Made by a program: the position numbers and the translations under genes | In this document: piece after piece, positions 2,658-52,257 of the stretch | Layout of the letters: every line of letters begins with the position of its first letter | Position numbering within the stretch: the first letter of the stretch is position 1 | DNA from: a virus | UHGV virus genome: UHGV-0033546 | Length of the DNA stretch: 64,000 bases | Direction: 5' to 3' (one strand) | The notes under the pieces: model-generated | Seen by the model: only the letters and a program-made list of their open reading frames with translations | What the model was told of the DNA's origin: nothing | Database searches by the model: none

Positions 2658-3002
2658 TTAAAAGAATTTAAATTTTTTCTTTGACCTTTTATTAAATGCA
2701 TCTTGTAGTTGCATTGTAATACATTTTTCTACATGAGGAGCTAACTCAGCTTTTCTTTCTTGGTCAAGAACAGCAAAGTCCATTACAACCTTTCCATCAA
2801 CCCAATCTAATTTTGTCACATACACAATGTGTGTAGAACCATCTTCTAGTTTAATGACAATCTCCTGGATAACATTTTCCATGGCAGATTTAATTATCTT
2901 AAGAGATTCATTAAAAAGACGTTCTTTTCTTTCTTCTTCCCCCTCCGAAGAGGGGGATTCATCGATAATTTCTAGATCTAAATCTAAATCATCTTTATTC
3001 AT
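2658..3002 (-). CDS. 40: gp40-like head-assembly protein, 114 aa
   Basis: ORF between uvsX and 41; ATG at 3002 gives 114 aa and a short overlap with the uvsX stop. Confidence 0.6.
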   Translation of the reverse strand: MNKDDLDLDLEIIDESPSSEGEEERKERLFNESLKIIKSAMENVIQEIVIKLEDGSTHIVYVTKLDWVDGKVVMDFAVLDQERKAELAPHVEKCITMQLQDAFNKRSKKKFKFF

Positions 3003-4176
3003 TAAATTCTTCCATATCACTTAACTGATCTAGGTCAGTTTCTAAATCAGCTGCTGATTTACTTTTACTTTCTGGAGATTTAAATTTTTCAACCTTTGAG
3101 TTAATCAATTCATCAACTTCAGCTTCAACAATTTCATTACTATCAATAGCACCTAATTGATAAGCACGTTTAATAGCATCTCGGAATGGCTGATGCTTAA
3201 ATAAAGGACCCCAGAATGTAGTGCAGTTGGTATCTTTTGCACGCCAAGATTTTTCTTCGCGAATCATCTCGCCGGTTTCTTCGTCAAGAAATTCACGAGC
3301 ATACCAGCCATTTTTTGGTTTTACCACAAATCCTAATTCAAGAGCCATATCTAACAATCCAGAATAAGGATCGATACCACCGTCAAATTTAACATCAATA
3401 AAGAATTTACTTTTTTCTTTAACAGTACGAGATTTTTCTACATTTAGAACAAATTGATACCCCTGAAGATCAGAACCATCTTTAATCTGGCGCTTACCGA
3501 TAATGAATACAGTATCAGCCGAATACATTACGCCTGTACCACCTGTCATCACGGTTTTACTAAACATTTCAATTGTTTCAATTGTATGGTTAACCGCAAC
3601 ACATGGAATATTTTTAATGCTAAAATAAGGAGTAACAATACGGAATAATGACTTCAGCGATTTAGCACGAGTCATATCTGCCACAGATTTTTCATTCAAG
3701 GCATCTTCCGTTTCTTTCTTAGAAGCCATATTACCGATTGAGTCGATGAATACAATAACCTTTTCACCACGCTCAATAGCTTCAAGCTGATTCACCATAT
3801 CAATTTTCAGCTGTTCAACTGACTGGATTGGCGTATGAATTACTCGTTCCGGGTCAACACCCATGGATCGCAAATAAGCTGGAGTAATACCAAATTCGCT
3901 ATCATAAAATAGACAAACCGCGTCAGGATATTTGTTCAAATACGCCGCAACCATAGTCAAAGACATATTTGATTTAAAGTGTTTAGAAGGACCTGCAAAA
4001 ATGGTTAAACCAGACTGCATACCACCATCAATCGCACCAGAAATAGCGATATTAAGCATTGGGATTTTTGTGCGAATTACATCCTTTTCATTAAAGAATT
4101 TAGATGTAGTCAGTTCAGCAGTCATTTTAGAAGTGGAAGCTTTAATCAAACGGGATTTTAAATCTGCAATAGACAT
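2995..4176 (-). CDS. uvsX: UvsX RecA-like recombinase, 393 aa
   Basis: RecA fold with Walker A GPSKHFKS; near-identical to T4 UvsX N-terminus and C-terminal acidic tail as recalled. Confidence 0.95.
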   Translation of the reverse strand: MSIADLKSRLIKASTSKMTAELTTSKFFNEKDVIRTKIPMLNIAISGAIDGGMQSGLTIFAGPSKHFKSNMSLTMVAAYLNKYPDAVCLFYDSEFGITPAYLRSMGVDPERVIHTPIQSVEQLKIDMVNQLEAIERGEKVIVFIDSIGNMASKKETEDALNEKSVADMTRAKSLKSLFRIVTPYFSIKNIPCVAVNHTIETIEMFSKTVMTGGTGVMYSADTVFIIGKRQIKDGSDLQGYQFVLNVEKSRTVKEKSKFFIDVKFDGGIDPYSGLLDMALELGFVVKPKNGWYAREFLDEETGEMIREEKSWRAKDTNCTTFWGPLFKHQPFRDAIKRAYQLGAIDSNEIVEAEVDELINSKVEKFKSPESKSKSAADLETDLDQLSDMEEFNE

Positions 4177-4229
4177 TCATTTTTTCCATAGGCATCATTA
4201 TATTTTCCTCACTGGTTAAAGATAGAGTA

Positions 4230-4253
4230 ATTATAACACAATAAATTTAGGCA
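4230..4253 (-). promoter_or_regulatory. candidate MotA-dependent middle promoter for uvsX (MotA-box-like TGCCTAA at 4253-4247, -10 TATAAT at 4235-4230)
   Basis: Minus-strand reading of the uvsX upstream intergenic region; box is one mismatch from the TGCTT consensus; spacing about 12 nt. Confidence 0.3.
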
Positions 4254-5096
4254 TTAATCAACTGCTATTGGATGAATAGCATTAAACTTATGAAATGCTT
4301 CTGATTTTTCTTTACGCGAAACACACATACGAAGAACCTTTAATGGCTCGTCTTCTTCACCCAACGATTTTCGTTTTTCAATATTAGAAGTTTTCCAACG
4401 AGCTTGCTCTGGAAACTCTCTATTGATTTGCTCAAGAGCTCTATTATGTTTTGAATTACTACGAATTGAACTACACCCACCAGGAGCTTGTGCTTTTCCA
4501 GATACAACTAGATATTTGAACAAGGCCAAATGCGGATAACCTTGATTAATTAAATTGAGAAATGCATACATATCTTCGCATAAATCAATTTTTCCATACC
4601 CAATTTGTTCTGTGGTAAGTTTTCCTAAATCATACCATGTATTTGTGAATCCATATGAATTTTCACGATAATTACCCCAAGATGAAGTAATTTTAAAAAT
4701 TGGTAGACGAGCATGGCCATGATAATACCCGCAATCCATGGCATCTTCAACGTATTGAATCAATTCATAGAACTGTTCACGAGTTAATTGATTAATTTTA
4801 TCTACGCAGCGACGATCATCTTTCTTTCGCATTGAACTCATACGAATAGTAGTATCATCATCAATCATCCAAATTCGTTGACCTGCATACATATCAGTAA
4901 TTGCTTTACGAGTACCAGCAATTCCGTTAACATCATCAGGAATAGTTATAATTTTAGCTCTAGACCCGTAAGCGTCATAATAAGCTTTTTCTTCATGTTT
5001 ACGCACTACAATATGGGGTTCATAATCAGTCGGAAACATATCAAGGGCAGAAACTGCCCCGACACGCTGATAACTTGGAATTACGAATTGAATCAT
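4254..5096 (-). CDS. GT-A fold glycosyltransferase, 280 aa, at the locus occupied by beta-gt in T4 (possibly a beta-glucosyl-HMC-alpha-glucosyltransferase type enzyme)
   Basis: N-terminal FVIPSYQRVG strand and DDD (DxD) motif typical of GT-A enzymes; ATG at 5096 in ATGA overlap with gene 42 stop; 280 aa versus 351-aa T4 beta-gt and not alignable to it by eye. Confidence 0.55.
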   Translation of the reverse strand: MIQFVIPSYQRVGAVSALDMFPTDYEPHIVVRKHEEKAYYDAYGSRAKIITIPDDVNGIAGTRKAITDMYAGQRIWMIDDDTTIRMSSMRKKDDRRCVDKINQLTREQFYELIQYVEDAMDCGYYHGHARLPIFKITSSWGNYRENSYGFTNTWYDLGKLTTEQIGYGKIDLCEDMYAFLNLINQGYPHLALFKYLVVSGKAQAPGGCSSIRSNSKHNRALEQINREFPEQARWKTSNIEKRKSLGEEDEPLKVLRMCVSRKEKSEAFHKFNAIHPIAVD

Positions 5097-39695: not shown

Positions 39696-40277
39696 CTAAC
39701 CGAGCTTTTTAGTTAATTCATTCCAATGTTTTCTACATAAAGAAACATAAATTTCATCACCAATACAGATTTGATTACCTTCTTTAACAGGTGTTCCATC
39801 TTCCATTAATCGAGCTGTCATAATCGCTTTTTTACCACAATGACAAACTGCCTTTAGTTCAATAAGTTTATCTGCAATCGCTAAAAGTTCTTTAGAACCT
39901 TCGAATAATTTTCCAGCGAAATCAGTTCTTAATCCATAAGCCATAACAGGAACATTATATGTATCAACAATTCGGCTTAATTGGTGCACCTGTTCAGTTT
40001 TTAAAAACTGAGCTTCATCTACAAATACGCAATGAATATCTTTTTGTGCTTCAGCCCATTTATAGAACTCGAAAATATCCATATCATCCGTAATAATATT
40101 CGCTTCCTGTTTAATTCCAATGCGAGAAACGACTTCACAAACAGAATCGCGAGTATCAATAGCAGGCTTAAGAACTAATACACCCATTCCGCGTTCTTTA
40201 TAATTATGCGCAGCAGTCAAAAGAGAAGCAGATTTTCCAGCATTCATTGCTGCATAAGTAAAAATTAAACTCGCCAT
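39696..40277 (-). CDS. tk: thymidine kinase, 193 aa
   Basis: P-loop MNAGKS, C-terminal Zn motif CHCGKK...C; 193 aa as T4 tk. Confidence 0.9.
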   Translation of the reverse strand: MASLIFTYAAMNAGKSASLLTAAHNYKERGMGVLVLKPAIDTRDSVCEVVSRIGIKQEANIITDDMDIFEFYKWAEAQKDIHCVFVDEAQFLKTEQVHQLSRIVDTYNVPVMAYGLRTDFAGKLFEGSKELLAIADKLIELKAVCHCGKKAIMTARLMEDGTPVKEGNQICIGDEIYVSLCRKHWNELTKKLG

Positions 40278-40286
40278 ATCACCTTC

Positions 40287-40472
40287 TTAAAGCGTATTCA
40301 CATAAGCTATTAATTCGTTTTCTTTCTTATCAAACCGACCAGCAAATTCTTCCTGCTGTTCGGGAGATATCGGGCCATATTCATCATAAAAGGCGTTTGC
40401 TTCTGTATGCTCATCTAGAAGTTCATGGATAAGCTCAAACAATTTATCTTTTTGTTCTTTACTTAGGCTCAT
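40287..40472 (-). CDS. hypothetical acidic protein, 61 aa
   Basis: Track ORF. Confidence 0.4.
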   Translation of the reverse strand: MSLSKEQKDKLFELIHELLDEHTEANAFYDEYGPISPEQQEEFAGRFDKKENELIAYVNTL

Positions 40473-40638: not shown

Positions 40639-40845
40639 TCATTTCGGTTTACCTTCTTTAACGAAATCAGGATAAGGATAAAATCCTGAATAAAATCCTT
40701 CGCCTTTATGATTGATGCATCCTTTATTAGAACAATAGCACCAATAATCAAAATCACAAGCCATTTCATCATTACATAAAGCAAATACAACTGGCCATTC
40801 GCACTTTTCGCAGTGGGCATTTTTAAGAATACTAGTTTGGCTCAT
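40639..40845 (-). CDS. Cys-rich small protein, about 68 aa
   Basis: ATG at 40845 in ATGA overlap with upstream stop; multiple Cys (CEKCEW, CYCSNKGC). Confidence 0.4.
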   Translation of the reverse strand: MSQTSILKNAHCEKCEWPVVFALCNDEMACDFDYWCYCSNKGCINHKGEGFYSGFYPYPDFVKEGKPK

Positions 40846-41054
40846 AACCATGTAACCTTTAAGCAATATTCTTCTACGTGTTGTTTACGACCTTTCTTAT
40901 CAATAAAGGTATATTCAACGAATGTTCCAATGTAGTCTTTATCTACATCATGTGGACTATTAATTGGGCATTTAGTACGGCAAATGCGTTCCCATTGACG
41001 AATAATTACTGCTTTGTTTTTAGGATCAAACGGATGCGGGTAATGTGCTTTCAT
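40842..41054 (-). CDS. hypothetical protein, 70 aa
   Basis: Track ORF. Confidence 0.4.
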   Translation of the reverse strand: MKAHYPHPFDPKNKAVIIRQWERICRTKCPINSPHDVDKDYIGTFVEYTFIDKKGRKQHVEEYCLKVTWL

Positions 41055-41505
41055 AATCCACCACTATTAAATCAATATCAGGAGTAAACATGTCGATTAA
41101 TTTAGAAACCTTATCCCAATCACCGCCAGCAATACCACAACCTATACGTGGAATGTAAATTACTGGTTTAAACAAAAGGGTTTCTGCCTGTAGATTTAAT
41201 TCTATCATACAGTTTACTAAAGCACCATAATCAAGATTAGAACCCGGTTCGTATTGCGTATACAAATTATAGCACATACTAAATCCTGTAGGATTATGTT
41301 TAAAAACAATAGACATGTCGCCTAATTTATCACGAGAACCGTACTCGGTAGTGGTTTTATCTATTTCTAAAATTTTGGGATAGGCTCTTGCTAATTGACC
41401 CGCTACGCCAGAGCCCATTGTATGGAAGCAATTGCACCCGTGCGCAATAATATTACCTCCAAGAAAGAGGGCGACAATATCGCCCTTGATATATTTTACA
41501 ATCAT
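41026..41505 (-). CDS. macrodomain (ADP-ribose binding/processing) protein, 159 aa
   Basis: Macro-fold motifs: KGDIV...NIIAHGCN, glycine-rich GSGVAGQLARA, and IPRIGCGIAGG. Confidence 0.55.
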   Translation of the reverse strand: MIVKYIKGDIVALFLGGNIIAHGCNCFHTMGSGVAGQLARAYPKILEIDKTTTEYGSRDKLGDMSIVFKHNPTGFSMCYNLYTQYEPGSNLDYGALVNCMIELNLQAETLLFKPVIYIPRIGCGIAGGDWDKVSKLIDMFTPDIDLIVVDYESTLPASV

Positions 41506-42394: not shown

Positions 42395-42856
42395 TCATTG
42401 AGTTTTAATTACTGCTTTAGAAGCCTTTCCTGGTAAACGACGACTGTTGATAATTGCCATCCTACATTGAAGTGACGGGTCTTTGAACTTCGCATTAGGT
42501 TTACAAACCGTAAATCCAAGCCAAAGATTTCCATCTGTGATTTCTAAACGTCCAGGACGATATTCAACTCCATCAATAAAATCCTCGTCAATATCAGGAC
42601 GCGGAGGCATACTCAGGAATTCATTAACTTCTAAAACATGGTCTTTTATTTTATGGAATAATTCAAAAACATATGTCTCATCAATCTCCCGTTGAATTGC
42701 ACGATCAAGAAGATGTTGAGAATATTTTAGATGAAACGATGAGACTCCTGCTGCTTTTGATGCCTCACGAATCTCATTGTTAATTTGACGAAACTCCGAC
42801 TCAAAGTGACGACGAAGCTTATTTCGACGGATAAAAACTTCTGTGTTGATAGTCAT
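42395..42856 (-). CDS. regB: RegB sequence-specific endoribonuclease, 153 aa
   Basis: 153 aa; N-terminus MTINTEVFIRRNKLRRHFESEF matches T4 RegB as recalled. Confidence 0.8.
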   Translation of the reverse strand: MTINTEVFIRRNKLRRHFESEFRQINNEIREASKAAGVSSFHLKYSQHLLDRAIQREIDETYVFELFHKIKDHVLEVNEFLSMPPRPDIDEDFIDGVEYRPGRLEITDGNLWLGFTVCKPNAKFKDPSLQCRMAIINSRRLPGKASKAVIKTQ

Positions 42857-42883: not shown

Positions 42884-42912
42884 ATTATACCACAGTCAAG
42901 AGGAAAAGTAAA
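42884..42912 (-). promoter_or_regulatory. early-type promoter: -35 TTTACT (42912-42907), spacer 17, -10 TATAAT (42889-42884)
   Basis: Minus-strand reading; 28 nt upstream of regB ATG. Confidence 0.5.
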
Positions 42913-46550: not shown

Positions 46551-46991
46551 TTAAAAGAGGTTGTTCATTATTCGGTAAAGTGAAGGACCCATCACATATT
46601 GCCATTGAGTACGAGGAATAAGAGCAAAAGCGTCCATCTCTGGAATCATAACTCCATCTTTATTTTCAAAATAAGACTCGCAATGGCAATTTCTGAACAT
46701 CTCATGCTCTACTGGAATCGTATAATAAAATAACTGCAGGTCTTTATTACTAGAATATTTAAATACACCTAGGTCTTCTAGAAGGTCTGGATTATAATTG
46801 CTAAAACCAGTCTCTTCTAAGCATTCTCTTTTTGCAGCTTCCAGCGCATTCAAATCAGAACTTTCTACACGCCCCTTTGGAATATCCCAACGATGCGCCA
46901 TCATTCCAGGCTTACGAGAACCGGTGACCCGCCCCATAAATAAATCTTTATCTTCTGTCATAAAGATAATACCAGCTGATAGTGTTTTCAT
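46551..46991 (-). CDS. nudE: Nudix hydrolase NudE, 146 aa
   Basis: Nudix box GRVESSDLNALEAAKRECLEETGF. Confidence 0.85.
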   Translation of the reverse strand: MKTLSAGIIFMTEDKDLFMGRVTGSRKPGMMAHRWDIPKGRVESSDLNALEAAKRECLEETGFSNYNPDLLEDLGVFKYSSNKDLQLFYYTIPVEHEMFRNCHCESYFENKDGVMIPEMDAFALIPRTQWQYVMGPSLYRIMNNLF

Positions 46992-51235: not shown

Positions 51236-51311
51236 TGGTCGAGGCAGTAGGGATCGAACCTACGACCTAGGACTTAGAAGGTCCTTGCTCTTCCTTCTGA
51301 GCTATGCCCCG
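51236..51311 (-). tRNA. tRNA-Arg (anticodon UCU), CCA encoded
   Basis: Manual cloverleaf: acceptor CGGGGCA/TGCCTCG, T-arm GTAGG-TTCGATC-CCTAC, anticodon loop CUUCUAA. Confidence 0.85.
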
Positions 51312-51315
51312 TAAT

Positions 51316-51391
51316 TGGGGTGACCGATGGGAGTCGAACCCATGACTACGAGAATCACAATCTCGAGTTCTACCAACTGAACTACGGCCAC
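51316..51391 (-). tRNA. tRNA-His (anticodon GUG), CCA encoded
   Basis: Manual cloverleaf: acceptor GTGGCCG/CGGTCAC, D-arm GTTC-AGTTGGTA-GAAC, anticodon loop UUGUGAU, T-loop TTCGACT. Confidence 0.8.
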
Positions 51392-51505
51392 ATTAATACC
51401 TACTCCAACAATCAAGATGTCTTCACACGAAATTAAGAGAAGAATGATCAGTTCAACCCTTATAATCGCGTCAAGTAGATATTAATGTGACAGTTGTCAC
51501 AAATT

Positions 51506-51580
51506 TGGCGGACATGCATGGATTCGAACCATGGACCAATTGATTAACAGTCAACTGCTCTACCACTGAGCTACACATCC
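51506..51580 (-). tRNA. tRNA-Asn (anticodon GUU), CCA encoded
   Basis: Manual cloverleaf: acceptor GGATGTG/CATGTCC, anticodon loop CUGUUAA, T-arm CATGG-TTCGAAT-CCATG. Confidence 0.8.
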
Positions 51581-51584
51581 AAAT

Positions 51585-51671
51585 TGGTGGGGAGTGATGG
51601 AGTCGAACCACCCGAGTCGCAATGACAATGGATTTACAGTCCACACCGCTACCTCTACGGGATAACTCCCC
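51585..51671 (-). tRNA. tRNA-Tyr (anticodon GUA), type II with long variable arm, CCA encoded
   Basis: Acceptor GGGGAGT/ACTCCCC, anticodon loop CUGUAAA, 15-nt variable arm, T-loop TTCGACT. Confidence 0.75.
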
Positions 51672-51684
51672 CTAATTCATAATT

Positions 51685-51759
51685 TGGTGGCCCTGGGTGG
51701 AATTGAACCACCATCTGGCGATTATGAGTCGCTTGCTTGAACCTTCCAGCTACAGGGCC
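51685..51759 (-). tRNA. tRNA with anticodon CAU (Met, or Ile if lysidine-modified as in the T4 tRNA-Ile)
   Basis: Acceptor GGCCCTG/CAGGGCC perfect 7 bp, anticodon loop CUCAUAA, T-arm GGTGG-TTCAATT-CCACC. Confidence 0.8.
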
Positions 51760-51760
51760 T

Positions 51761-51836
51761 TGGTGCTGATTGACGGAATCGAACCGCCGACATCCTCATT
51801 ACAAGTGAGGTGCTCTACCTACTGAGCTAAATCAGC
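51761..51836 (-). tRNA. tRNA-Thr (anticodon UGU), CCA encoded
   Basis: Acceptor GCTGATT/AATCAGC, anticodon loop CUUGUAA, T-loop TTCGATT. Confidence 0.85.
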
Positions 51837-51841
51837 AAAAC

Positions 51842-51931
51842 TGGCGGAGGCGATAGGATTTGAACCTATGAGTCGCCGGAGCGACTGCCGGTTTTCAAGA
51901 CCGGTGCATTAAACCACTCTGCCACGCCTCC
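51842..51931 (-). tRNA. tRNA-Ser (anticodon UGA), type II, CCA encoded
   Basis: Acceptor GGAGGCG/CGCCTCC, anticodon loop CUUGAAA, long variable arm. Confidence 0.85.
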
Positions 51932-51933
51932 AG

Positions 51934-52007
51934 TCTCCATACAAGGATTTGAACCTTGGACCTCCTGATCCCAAATCAGGCGCTCTACCAAACTGAGCTA
52001 CACGGAG
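51934..52007 (-). tRNA. tRNA-Pro (anticodon UGG), CCA not encoded
   Basis: Acceptor CTCCGTG/TATGGAG, anticodon loop UUUGGGA; 3' end is 2 nt from the tRNA-Ser 5' end. Confidence 0.85.
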
Positions 52008-52017
52008 TAAATTAAAT

Positions 52018-52091
<74 letters not shown>

Positions 52092-52096
52092 AAATT

Positions 52097-52183
52097 TGGT
52101 GCGAGAAGTGGGACTCGAACCCACAAGGAAATCATTCCGCAGCATTTTAAGTGCTGTGCCTTTACCAATTTGACCATTCTCGC
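52097..52183 (-). tRNA. tRNA-Leu (anticodon UAA), type II, CCA encoded
   Basis: Acceptor GCGAGAA/TTCTCGC, anticodon loop CUUAAAA, long variable arm. Confidence 0.85.
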
Positions 52184-52184
52184 G

Positions 52185-52257
52185 CTGGGAATAAAGGACT
52201 CGAACCTTTGCATCCTGGAATCAAAATCCAGTGCCTTACCAACTTGGCTAATTCCCA
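52185..52257 (-). tRNA. tRNA-Gln (anticodon UUG), CCA not encoded
   Basis: Acceptor TGGGAAT/ATTCCCA, anticodon loop UUUUGAU; 3' end is 1 nt from the tRNA-Leu 5' end. Confidence 0.85.

Follow-up and report, generated by a model that had tools for sequence, protein, structure and literature searches.

A window of 64,000 nucleotides from the virus genome UHGV-0033546 carries on its minus strand (41026..41505) a 159-codon open reading frame (ORF) with an ATG start, which homology and gene order identify as a divergent allele of the T4 gene tk.4 (adfM) in a Tequatrovirus. We consider it likely (probability about 0.6) that the encoded macrodomain protein, called the window protein below, is an ADP-ribose hydrolase acting at C1'', which would strip the marks set by DarT2 from phage DNA by a glutamine-type mechanism. 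The gene, its family and its likely role in countering host defence are already known.

A preliminary description of this DNA had called the ORF product a macrodomain protein of the tk-regB block, and both parts of this call were borne out. The three motifs it named are all present in the translation (KGDIV...NIIAHGCN at residues 7-25, GSGVAGQLARA at 31-41, IPRIGCGIAGG at 118-128), and the ORF, for which no strand had been given, is flanked by tk and regB (Table 1). The Pfam model Macro (PF01661) matched with 35.2 bits over profile positions 2-117 of 118 (gathering cut-off 22 bits, E 1.3e-8), and PHROG 335, a family named 'phosphatase', with an E-value of 1.3e-69. An AlphaFold2 model, for which a family alignment of 58 homologous sequences was used as input, reached a predicted local distance difference test score (pLDDT) of 93.6 and adopts the alpha/beta/alpha macro fold. 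When this model was compared with the PDB by Foldseek, the top hits were TARG1, Poa1p, Thermus aquaticus DarG, BT1257 and Mycobacterium tuberculosis DarG. It can be seen that the nearest structural and sequence neighbors (TARG1, DarG, SCO6735, Poa1p) all belong to the ALC1-like class and stand apart from other macro classes. Taken together, sequence and model place the window protein, which consists of a macrodomain standing alone, in the ALC1-like class.

Alignment with wild-type T4 Tk.4 gave full-length homology with 57% identity (89/155 residues), no gaps and an E-value of 7e-69. The slot of the gene between vs and tk.3 is the same in the window, RB14, T4 and T6, and stretches of 3 kb and 24 kb of the window share 95-97% identity with many Escherichia and Shigella Tequatroviruses. 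In the T4, T6 and RB14 records the orthologue is labeled tk.4 and is described, for instance, as a 'phosphatase', as a 'macro domain protein' or by the remark 'contains A1pp phosphatase motif'.

DarTG2 ADP-ribosylates thymidines in DNA. T2 and T4 lacking adfA and adfN were still resistant to DarTG2 (PMC11825919), and thus another factor was to be expected. The result of HIDEN-SEQ, published in a 2025 preprint (10.1101/2025.11.20.689424), fits this expectation: from a T4 library grown on a DarTG2-expressing host, tk.4 alone emerged as a significant transposon hit, and a clean tk.4 knockout rendered T4 sensitive to DarTG2. Its authors gave the gene the new name adfM (anti-DarT factor macrodomain). 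The suggestion made in the preliminary description that the protein might counter host ADP-ribosylation agrees with these genetic data on the T4 orthologue.

Active-site residues, the second allele and the proposed reaction

In the family alignment His22, Gly23, Asn25 and Cys26 are invariant. His22 corresponds to His23 and Thr29 to Ser30 of Poa1p, for both of which mutant structures have been solved, and Asn25 aligns with the asparagine mutated in AdfM of phage PhiKZ (N23A; PMC13309987). Gln84 occupies the position of Lys84 in TARG1 (profile alignment) and of DarG Lys80, SCO6735 Gln85 and the corresponding BT1257 glutamine (panel alignment), with NLYTQ84 aligning to NMIGQ85 of SCO6735. The putative diphosphate-binding loop PRIGCGIAGGDW matches PRIGCGLAGGTW in SCO6735, PRIGCGLAGGKW in BT1257 and PLIGCGLAGGDW in Adpp-like proteins. 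All residues of the ADP-ribose site are invariant among homologues down to 38% identity. These equivalences were taken from L-INS-i and hidden Markov model (HMM) alignments, which were concordant; the default MAFFT alignment was set aside, having misplaced BT1257 near the glutamine. The SCO6735 sequence and its numbering (V25, Q85) were obtained from a PDB search with BT1257 as query; when residues 56-159 by themselves served as phmmer query against the PDB, the alignment to SCO6735 was limited to the C-terminal loop.

SCO6735 cleaves the thymidine-ADP-ribose made by DarT faster than DarG or TARG1 do, does not cleave guanosine-ADP-ribose and rescues Escherichia coli from DarT; its Q85A and Q85E mutants are inactive, and a water-mediated mechanism has been proposed (PMC9411070). 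Since this enzyme removes thymidine-ADP-ribose with the same glutamine, the missing lysine is no argument against the proposed activity of the window protein, which probably works without a catalytic lysine in the way proposed for SCO6735.

We followed the sliding nucleotide identity to RB14, whose Tk.4 shares 99% identity with that of T4. Nucleotide identity starts from about 97% in the flanks, falls to about 80% in the first 120 nucleotides of the replaced block and to about 55% in the rest of tk.4, and returns to 92-98% at the start of tk.3. By contrast, protein identity of the window to RB14 amounts to 95-99% for tk, tk.3, vs, vs.1 and regB. When the gene was used as megablast query, 329 phage records covered at least 80% of it, including PP01, RB7, Shfl2 and pSs-1, with JS98 being less close; about 250 further records, T2, T4, RB68 and AR1 among them, matched only nucleotides 1-150 at about 84% identity. 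The window-type allele is present in roughly half of the Tequatrovirus records, whereas the phenotype data come from the T4 type. The T4 allele also deviates in the diphosphate loop, which reads PRIGAGIGKGNW (GAGIGKGNW), in contrast to the canonical GCGIAGGDW of the window. Among phages of known DarTG2 behavior, T2, T4 and T6 were checked for the window allele and all turned out to be T4-type, so that no indirect phenotype could be derived; wherever a DarTG2 phenotype has been reported for a T-even phage, that phage has the other allele. As a separate observation, the mutant laboratory T4 clone T4_7t1 (OL964745.1, 1531..1906) has tk.4 broken up into a pair of short ORFs, each called 'macro domain-containing', which fits dispensability on laboratory hosts.

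In the reaction sequence we propose, the tk.4 protein would be made before replication from a transcript running from regB through vs to tk.4, probably by translational coupling with vs. The His22/Asn25 pocket and the diphosphate loop would hold the ADP-ribose moiety at its distal ribose and diphosphate, and the invariant Gln84 would position the substrate and a water network. Hydrolysis of the bond at C1'' of the distal ribose would then free the thymidines that DarT2 has modified in single-stranded phage DNA from their ADP-ribose, and removal of the marks would allow phage replication to proceed. Our analysis establishes the ORF, its fold and class, the motif pattern, the synteny and the allele structure. 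Work on homologues has demonstrated the anti-DarTG2 phenotype of T4 tk.4, thymidine-ADP-ribose hydrolysis by SCO6735 and hydrolysis of ADP-ribose-1''-phosphate (ADPR-1''-phosphate) by the phage protein Adpp. The DarT2-reversing activity and the glutamine-type mechanism of the window allele are our inference.

Several points weigh against this proposal. The catalytic lysine of DarG is absent and the protein scores far below the cut-offs of the DarG family. It also lacks the longer mobile loop and an equivalent of Lys34, which the SCO6735 paper (PMC9411070) linked to efficient handling of DNA. The T4 evidence is a phenotype, and that Tk.4 takes ADP-ribose off DNA is a proposal of the preprint (10.1101/2025.11.20.689424). 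Moreover, T2, T4 and T6 carry the other allele (155 amino acids, against 159 in the window), to which the published phenotype belongs, and the closest biochemically characterized relative, Adpp, is an ADPR-1''-phosphate phosphatase and no DNA hydrolase. The acidic character of the protein (isoelectric point 5.0) carries little weight; we dropped it as an argument against a DNA substrate, since PhiKZ AdfM acts on DNA with an isoelectric point of 5.05.

Adpp and alternative functions

The RES-domain defense aRES generates ADPR-1''-phosphate, and Adpp of Vibrio phage Gary turns this product into ADP-ribose, as followed by liquid chromatography-mass spectrometry; this conversion allows NARP1 to rebuild NAD+, and Adpp is needed to overcome aRES (Osterman et al., 10.64898/2026.01.28.702374). 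Among our tblastn matches, homologues of the window protein in Vibrio phages adjoin a 'ribose-phosphate pyrophosphokinase'. In Vibrio phage Achelous the macro gene lies between this gene and a 'nicotinamide phosphoribosyl transferase', which is the Adps-Adpp-Namat order of Osterman et al. The Achelous protein gp176 shares 98.7% identity with Gary Adpp; with the window protein it shares 38.7% (86 bits, E 5e-26), and with Tk.4 of the T4 type 35%. Adpp and the tk.4 protein belong to one phage protein family, with the glutamine and the motifs AHxCNCF, NxYxQY, DYGAL and IGCGxAGGDW in common. Adpp differs by seven extra residues in the loop after the glutamine, and it is encoded between Adps and Namat and acts with both, whereas the neighbors of tk.4 in the window are vs and tk.3. 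The tblastn searches with the window protein and with the Achelous protein returned 2,769 and 2,711 phage records, respectively, with nearly equal counts per host genus.

This kinship raises the question whether the tk.4 protein is mainly an ADPR-1''-phosphate phosphatase like Poa1p and Adpp, acting on the product of RES-domain NAD+ phosphorylases such as aRES. At about 39% identity Adpp is closer to the window protein than SCO6735, BT1257 or DarG. The alignment of His22 and Thr29 with the Poa1p residues points in the same direction, as do the database names 'phosphatase', 'A1pp phosphatase motif' and 'Poa1p_like' and the homologues of Pakpunavirus phiMK and of Thalassavirus, which lie beside Adps-like and Namat-like genes. 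In Vequintavirus the neighbors of the homologue are hypothetical genes only. However, Adpp is useful only through the rebuilding of NAD+ by NARP1, and no homologue of Adps or Namat was found in the 64-kb window (best tblastn E-value 0.24), the part of the genome covered here. The tk-regB block occurs in 552 records of Escherichia and 79 of Shigella; Adps-like genes are much scarcer, with 178 Escherichia phage records and Shigella outside the ten commonest names, and these counts argue against NARP1 in most Tequatroviruses. In addition, the sole conditional phenotype reported for the T4 orthologue was observed on DarTG2. Without NARP1, conversion of ADPR-1''-phosphate to ADP-ribose restores nothing, and therefore the phosphatase role is less likely to be the one under selection. 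As principal function we regard it as rather unlikely, although the activity itself may well exist in the tk.4 protein: both reactions cleave at C1'' and are hence compatible, and since the family includes Adpp, both substrates are relevant to any of its members.

The preliminary description had also considered NAD-derived host immune signals, and Adpp gives this option indirect support by dephosphorylating a product of the NAD+-cleaving aRES. The substrate is, however, a breakdown product and no immune signal, and the NARP1 partners are without homologue in the window.

As a side observation, the macro region of Escherichia phage skuden (Felixounavirus, 2995..3780) forms the N-terminal part of a 261-residue 'putative phosphatase'. 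It is followed by 800 nucleotides that are free of annotated genes (3781..4580), and the related phage tootiki has an Adps-like gene at nearly equal genome coordinates. Judging from this position, the skuden gap may contain an unannotated NARP1 gene.

A wider formulation would unite both activities. Tk.4/PHROG 335 could be one phage family of general C1'' ADP-ribose hydrolases directed against two defenses, DarT2 in T-even phages and RES-type NAD+ phosphorolysis in NARP1 phages, and the two tk.4 alleles may differ in their substrate or defense spectrum. We offer this as a tentative possibility. The window allele keeps the canonical loop of the SCO6735/Adpp type, while the tested T4 allele has diverged there. 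Neither the homology between T4 AdfM and Adpp nor the subclass difference between the AdfM proteins of T4 and PhiKZ is stated in the consulted passages of the three papers on these proteins.

The tk.4 protein might also neutralize DarT2 or another ADP-ribosyltransferase mainly by binding, as a stoichiometric inhibitor. In vitro, SCO6735, DarG and TARG1 remain inhibitors of DarT when made catalytically dead by the mutations Q85A, K80A and K84A, respectively (PMC9411070), and the sharp replacement of tk.4 in near-identical genomes is the pattern expected of a protein interface in an arms race. The invariance of the ADP-ribose site described above points instead to selection on catalysis or ligand binding, and the single domain of 159 residues lacks the C-terminal DarT-binding domain of DarG. 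We therefore consider this mode of action improbable.

Two further functions are even harder to reconcile with the data. The preliminary description had raised the idea that the protein could edit ADP-ribose marks set by the phage itself. These would be the modifications of host proteins by Alt, ModA and ModB, or RNAylation by ModB. That T-even phages have three ADP-ribosyltransferases is a circumstantial point in favor, but the idea has no support; Alt, ModA and ModB modify arginine. Arginine-specific macrodomains such as Legionella MavL reportedly exist, but similarity of the MavL type was absent from all our sequence and structure searches. The characterized members of the class act on Glu/Asp esters, thymidine (at N3) and the 1''-phosphate, and the phenotype of T4 tk.4 was confined to the DarTG2 host; editing of the phage's own marks is thus very improbable. 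Hardly to be expected at all is degradation or sequestration of ADP-ribose-derived immune signals such as the cyclic ADP-ribose isomers of Thoeris: no homologue with such an activity was found, the known phage solutions use other folds (RyR-domain proteins, Tad proteins), and the matches to the ALC1-like class are much stronger.

Gene neighborhood

The features of the window discussed here are compiled in Table 1.

Table 1. Positions of tk.4, its sequence features and neighboring elements in the window
Feature	Position	Strand	Basis
tk.4/adfM orthologue, single-domain macrodomain, window-type allele, 159 amino acids	41026..41505	-	ORF, 57% identity to T4 Tk.4
Codons 22-25 (HGCN) of the AHGCNC motif	41431..41442	-	Family alignment
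Gln84 codon	41254..41256	-	Invariant in 58 family members
Putative diphosphate-binding loop PRIGCGIAGGDW, residues 119-130	41116..41151	-	Alignment
Allele-replacement block	41024..41485		Sliding identity to RB14 (T4-type), MAFFT alignment
ATGA overlap of vs stop codon and tk.4 start codon	41502..41505	-	Sequence read
3' end of tk.4 overlapping the start of tk.3 (DUF7202), 29 nucleotides	41026..41054	-	Pfam and ORF coordinates
tk	39696..40277		Pfam TK, E 1.7e-60
regB	42395..42856		Pfam REGB_T4, E 1.4e-68
Sigma-70-like promoter candidate ahead of regB (TTTACT, 17-nucleotide spacer, TATAAT, upstream TG)	42884..42912	-	Consensus scan only

The gene is surrounded by a T-even gene set consisting of tk, a small zinc-binding ORF, tk.3, tk.4, vs, vs.1 (SLT domain) and regB. 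Here, vs lies directly upstream of tk.4, with its product being 97% identical to RB14 Vs, and vs and vs.1 separate tk.4 from regB. Beyond regB we found denV, the lysozyme gene e and a gene for a NUDIX protein resembling NudE. The ATGA overlap of vs and tk.4 fits translational coupling in one transcript, and the sigma-70-like candidate upstream of regB is a possible source of such a regB-vs.1-vs-tk.4 transcript. At the other end, the overlap with tk.3 is longer than in RB14, where it measures only 4 nucleotides.

Two motifs inside the tk.4 coding sequence were observed in addition. A pattern resembling a MotA-dependent middle promoter (TGCTTTA, 13 nucleotides, TAGAAT) is located at 41199..41224 on the minus strand and could drive expression of tk.3 through tk; RB14 reads cGCTTTA...TAGAAT at these codons, and such patterns are about fourfold enriched, with 19 occurrences in the window against an expectation of 4.5. 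A GC-rich hairpin (AGGGCGA-TATTG-TCGCCCT, 41468..41486, minus strand) covers codons 7-13 in an otherwise AT-rich genome and is identical in the T4-type allele of RB14. The terminator scan flagged this hairpin on both strands, but we rejected it as terminator because it lies inside the ORF and the z-score of its fold was only -2.1 (101-nucleotide stretch).

A second sharply divergent patch (40282..40424, minus strand) was found in the tk.1/tk.2 area, with about 55-60% identity to RB14 and about 100-190 nucleotides deleted. Here tk.1 is absent, and an ORF of 61 residues (40287..40472) shares only 56% identity with Tk.2 of RB14, against 95-99% in the flanks. The zinc-binding ORF is cysteine-rich and encodes 75 residues (40639..40866, minus strand). 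It matches Pfam Phage_zn_bind with an E-value of 4e-29 and RB14 RB32ORF111c at 98.5% identity; in the fetched stretch of the T4 wild-type record, no such gene is present between tk.3 and tk.2. The NudE-like gene (46551..46991, minus strand) lies about 5 kb upstream of tk.4. NudE is called active on ADP-ribose in the T6 record and would consume the ADP-ribose freed by Tk.4, which makes a functional pairing possible. Further upstream, a tRNA cluster (51236..52257, minus strand) comprises 11 genes (Arg, His, Asn, Tyr, Met, Thr, Ser, Pro, Gly, Leu, Gln), a larger set than the 8 tRNA genes of T4 itself; when Rfam was searched with the window, only tRNAs were retrieved.

Comparison with known ADP-ribose hydrolases

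T4 Tk.4 and the window protein share the slot between vs and tk.3, a similar single-domain size (155 and 159 residues, respectively) and the residues His22, Asn25 and Gln84. The comparison with DarG gave a different picture. DarG and PhiKZ gp104 have the catalytic lysine in an FPTKxHWR motif (K80 in T. aquaticus) and a PPLGxxNGGL loop, whereas the window protein has YTQ (within NLYTQ) and PRIGCGIAGG. The NCBIfam model NF048014 scored the window protein with 29.3 bits against a cut-off of 250, and the DarG model of PADLOC gave 28.5 bits, while PhiKZ gp104 reached 132.9 bits with the latter. In the window neither a C-terminal DarT-binding domain of the protein nor an adjacent darT was found, the neighbors being vs and tk.3. 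From these sequence features we conclude that the tk.4 protein is not of the DarG type. Beside a bacterial homologue, Pelagimonas P0120, we looked for a DarT gene and found a stand-alone gene amid housekeeping genes, which has no bearing either way.

PhiKZ gp104, which is also named AdfM, removes DarT2 marks from DNA according to a 2026 Cell Reports paper (PMC13309987). In our panel alignment the T4 protein of this name is only about 20% identical to it, and the two AdfM proteins appear to be independent recruitments. The name was thus given independently to two subclasses, the Gln-type T4 Tk.4, which resembles Poa1p and SCO6735, and the Lys-type PhiKZ gp104, which resembles DarG, and this shared name could confuse annotation.

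With the SCO6735/Bt_1257 subclass (PDB 5E3B, 2FG1; PMC9411070) the window protein shares the glutamine at the lysine position and the PRIGCGLAGGxW loop, but only 27-28% identity. The mobile loop of SCO6735 is five residues longer than that of TARG1 and DarG, and BT1257 has an insertion of six residues after the glutamine relative to the Tk.4 family profile, with the same gap in the L-INS-i alignment; the window protein is without this extension and carries Ser32 in place of Lys34 of SCO6735. Moreover, SCO6735 is a basic bacterial housekeeping protein, whereas the window protein is acidic and of phage origin. The Lys84/Asp125 pair of TARG1 (PDB 4J5S) is replaced by Gln84/Ala126, and yeast Poa1p (PDB 6LFQ) acts on a by-product of tRNA splicing, a pathway that has no counterpart in the phage setting.

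The anti-DarTG armory of T-even phages is layered and includes AdfA, AdfN, which counters guanosine marks, and Tk.4/AdfM, which counters thymidine marks; it matters for host range and when phages are selected for therapy. As the T-even factor is of the Gln type and no captured DarG, mutagenesis designs derived from the K80 of DarG would miss its key residue.
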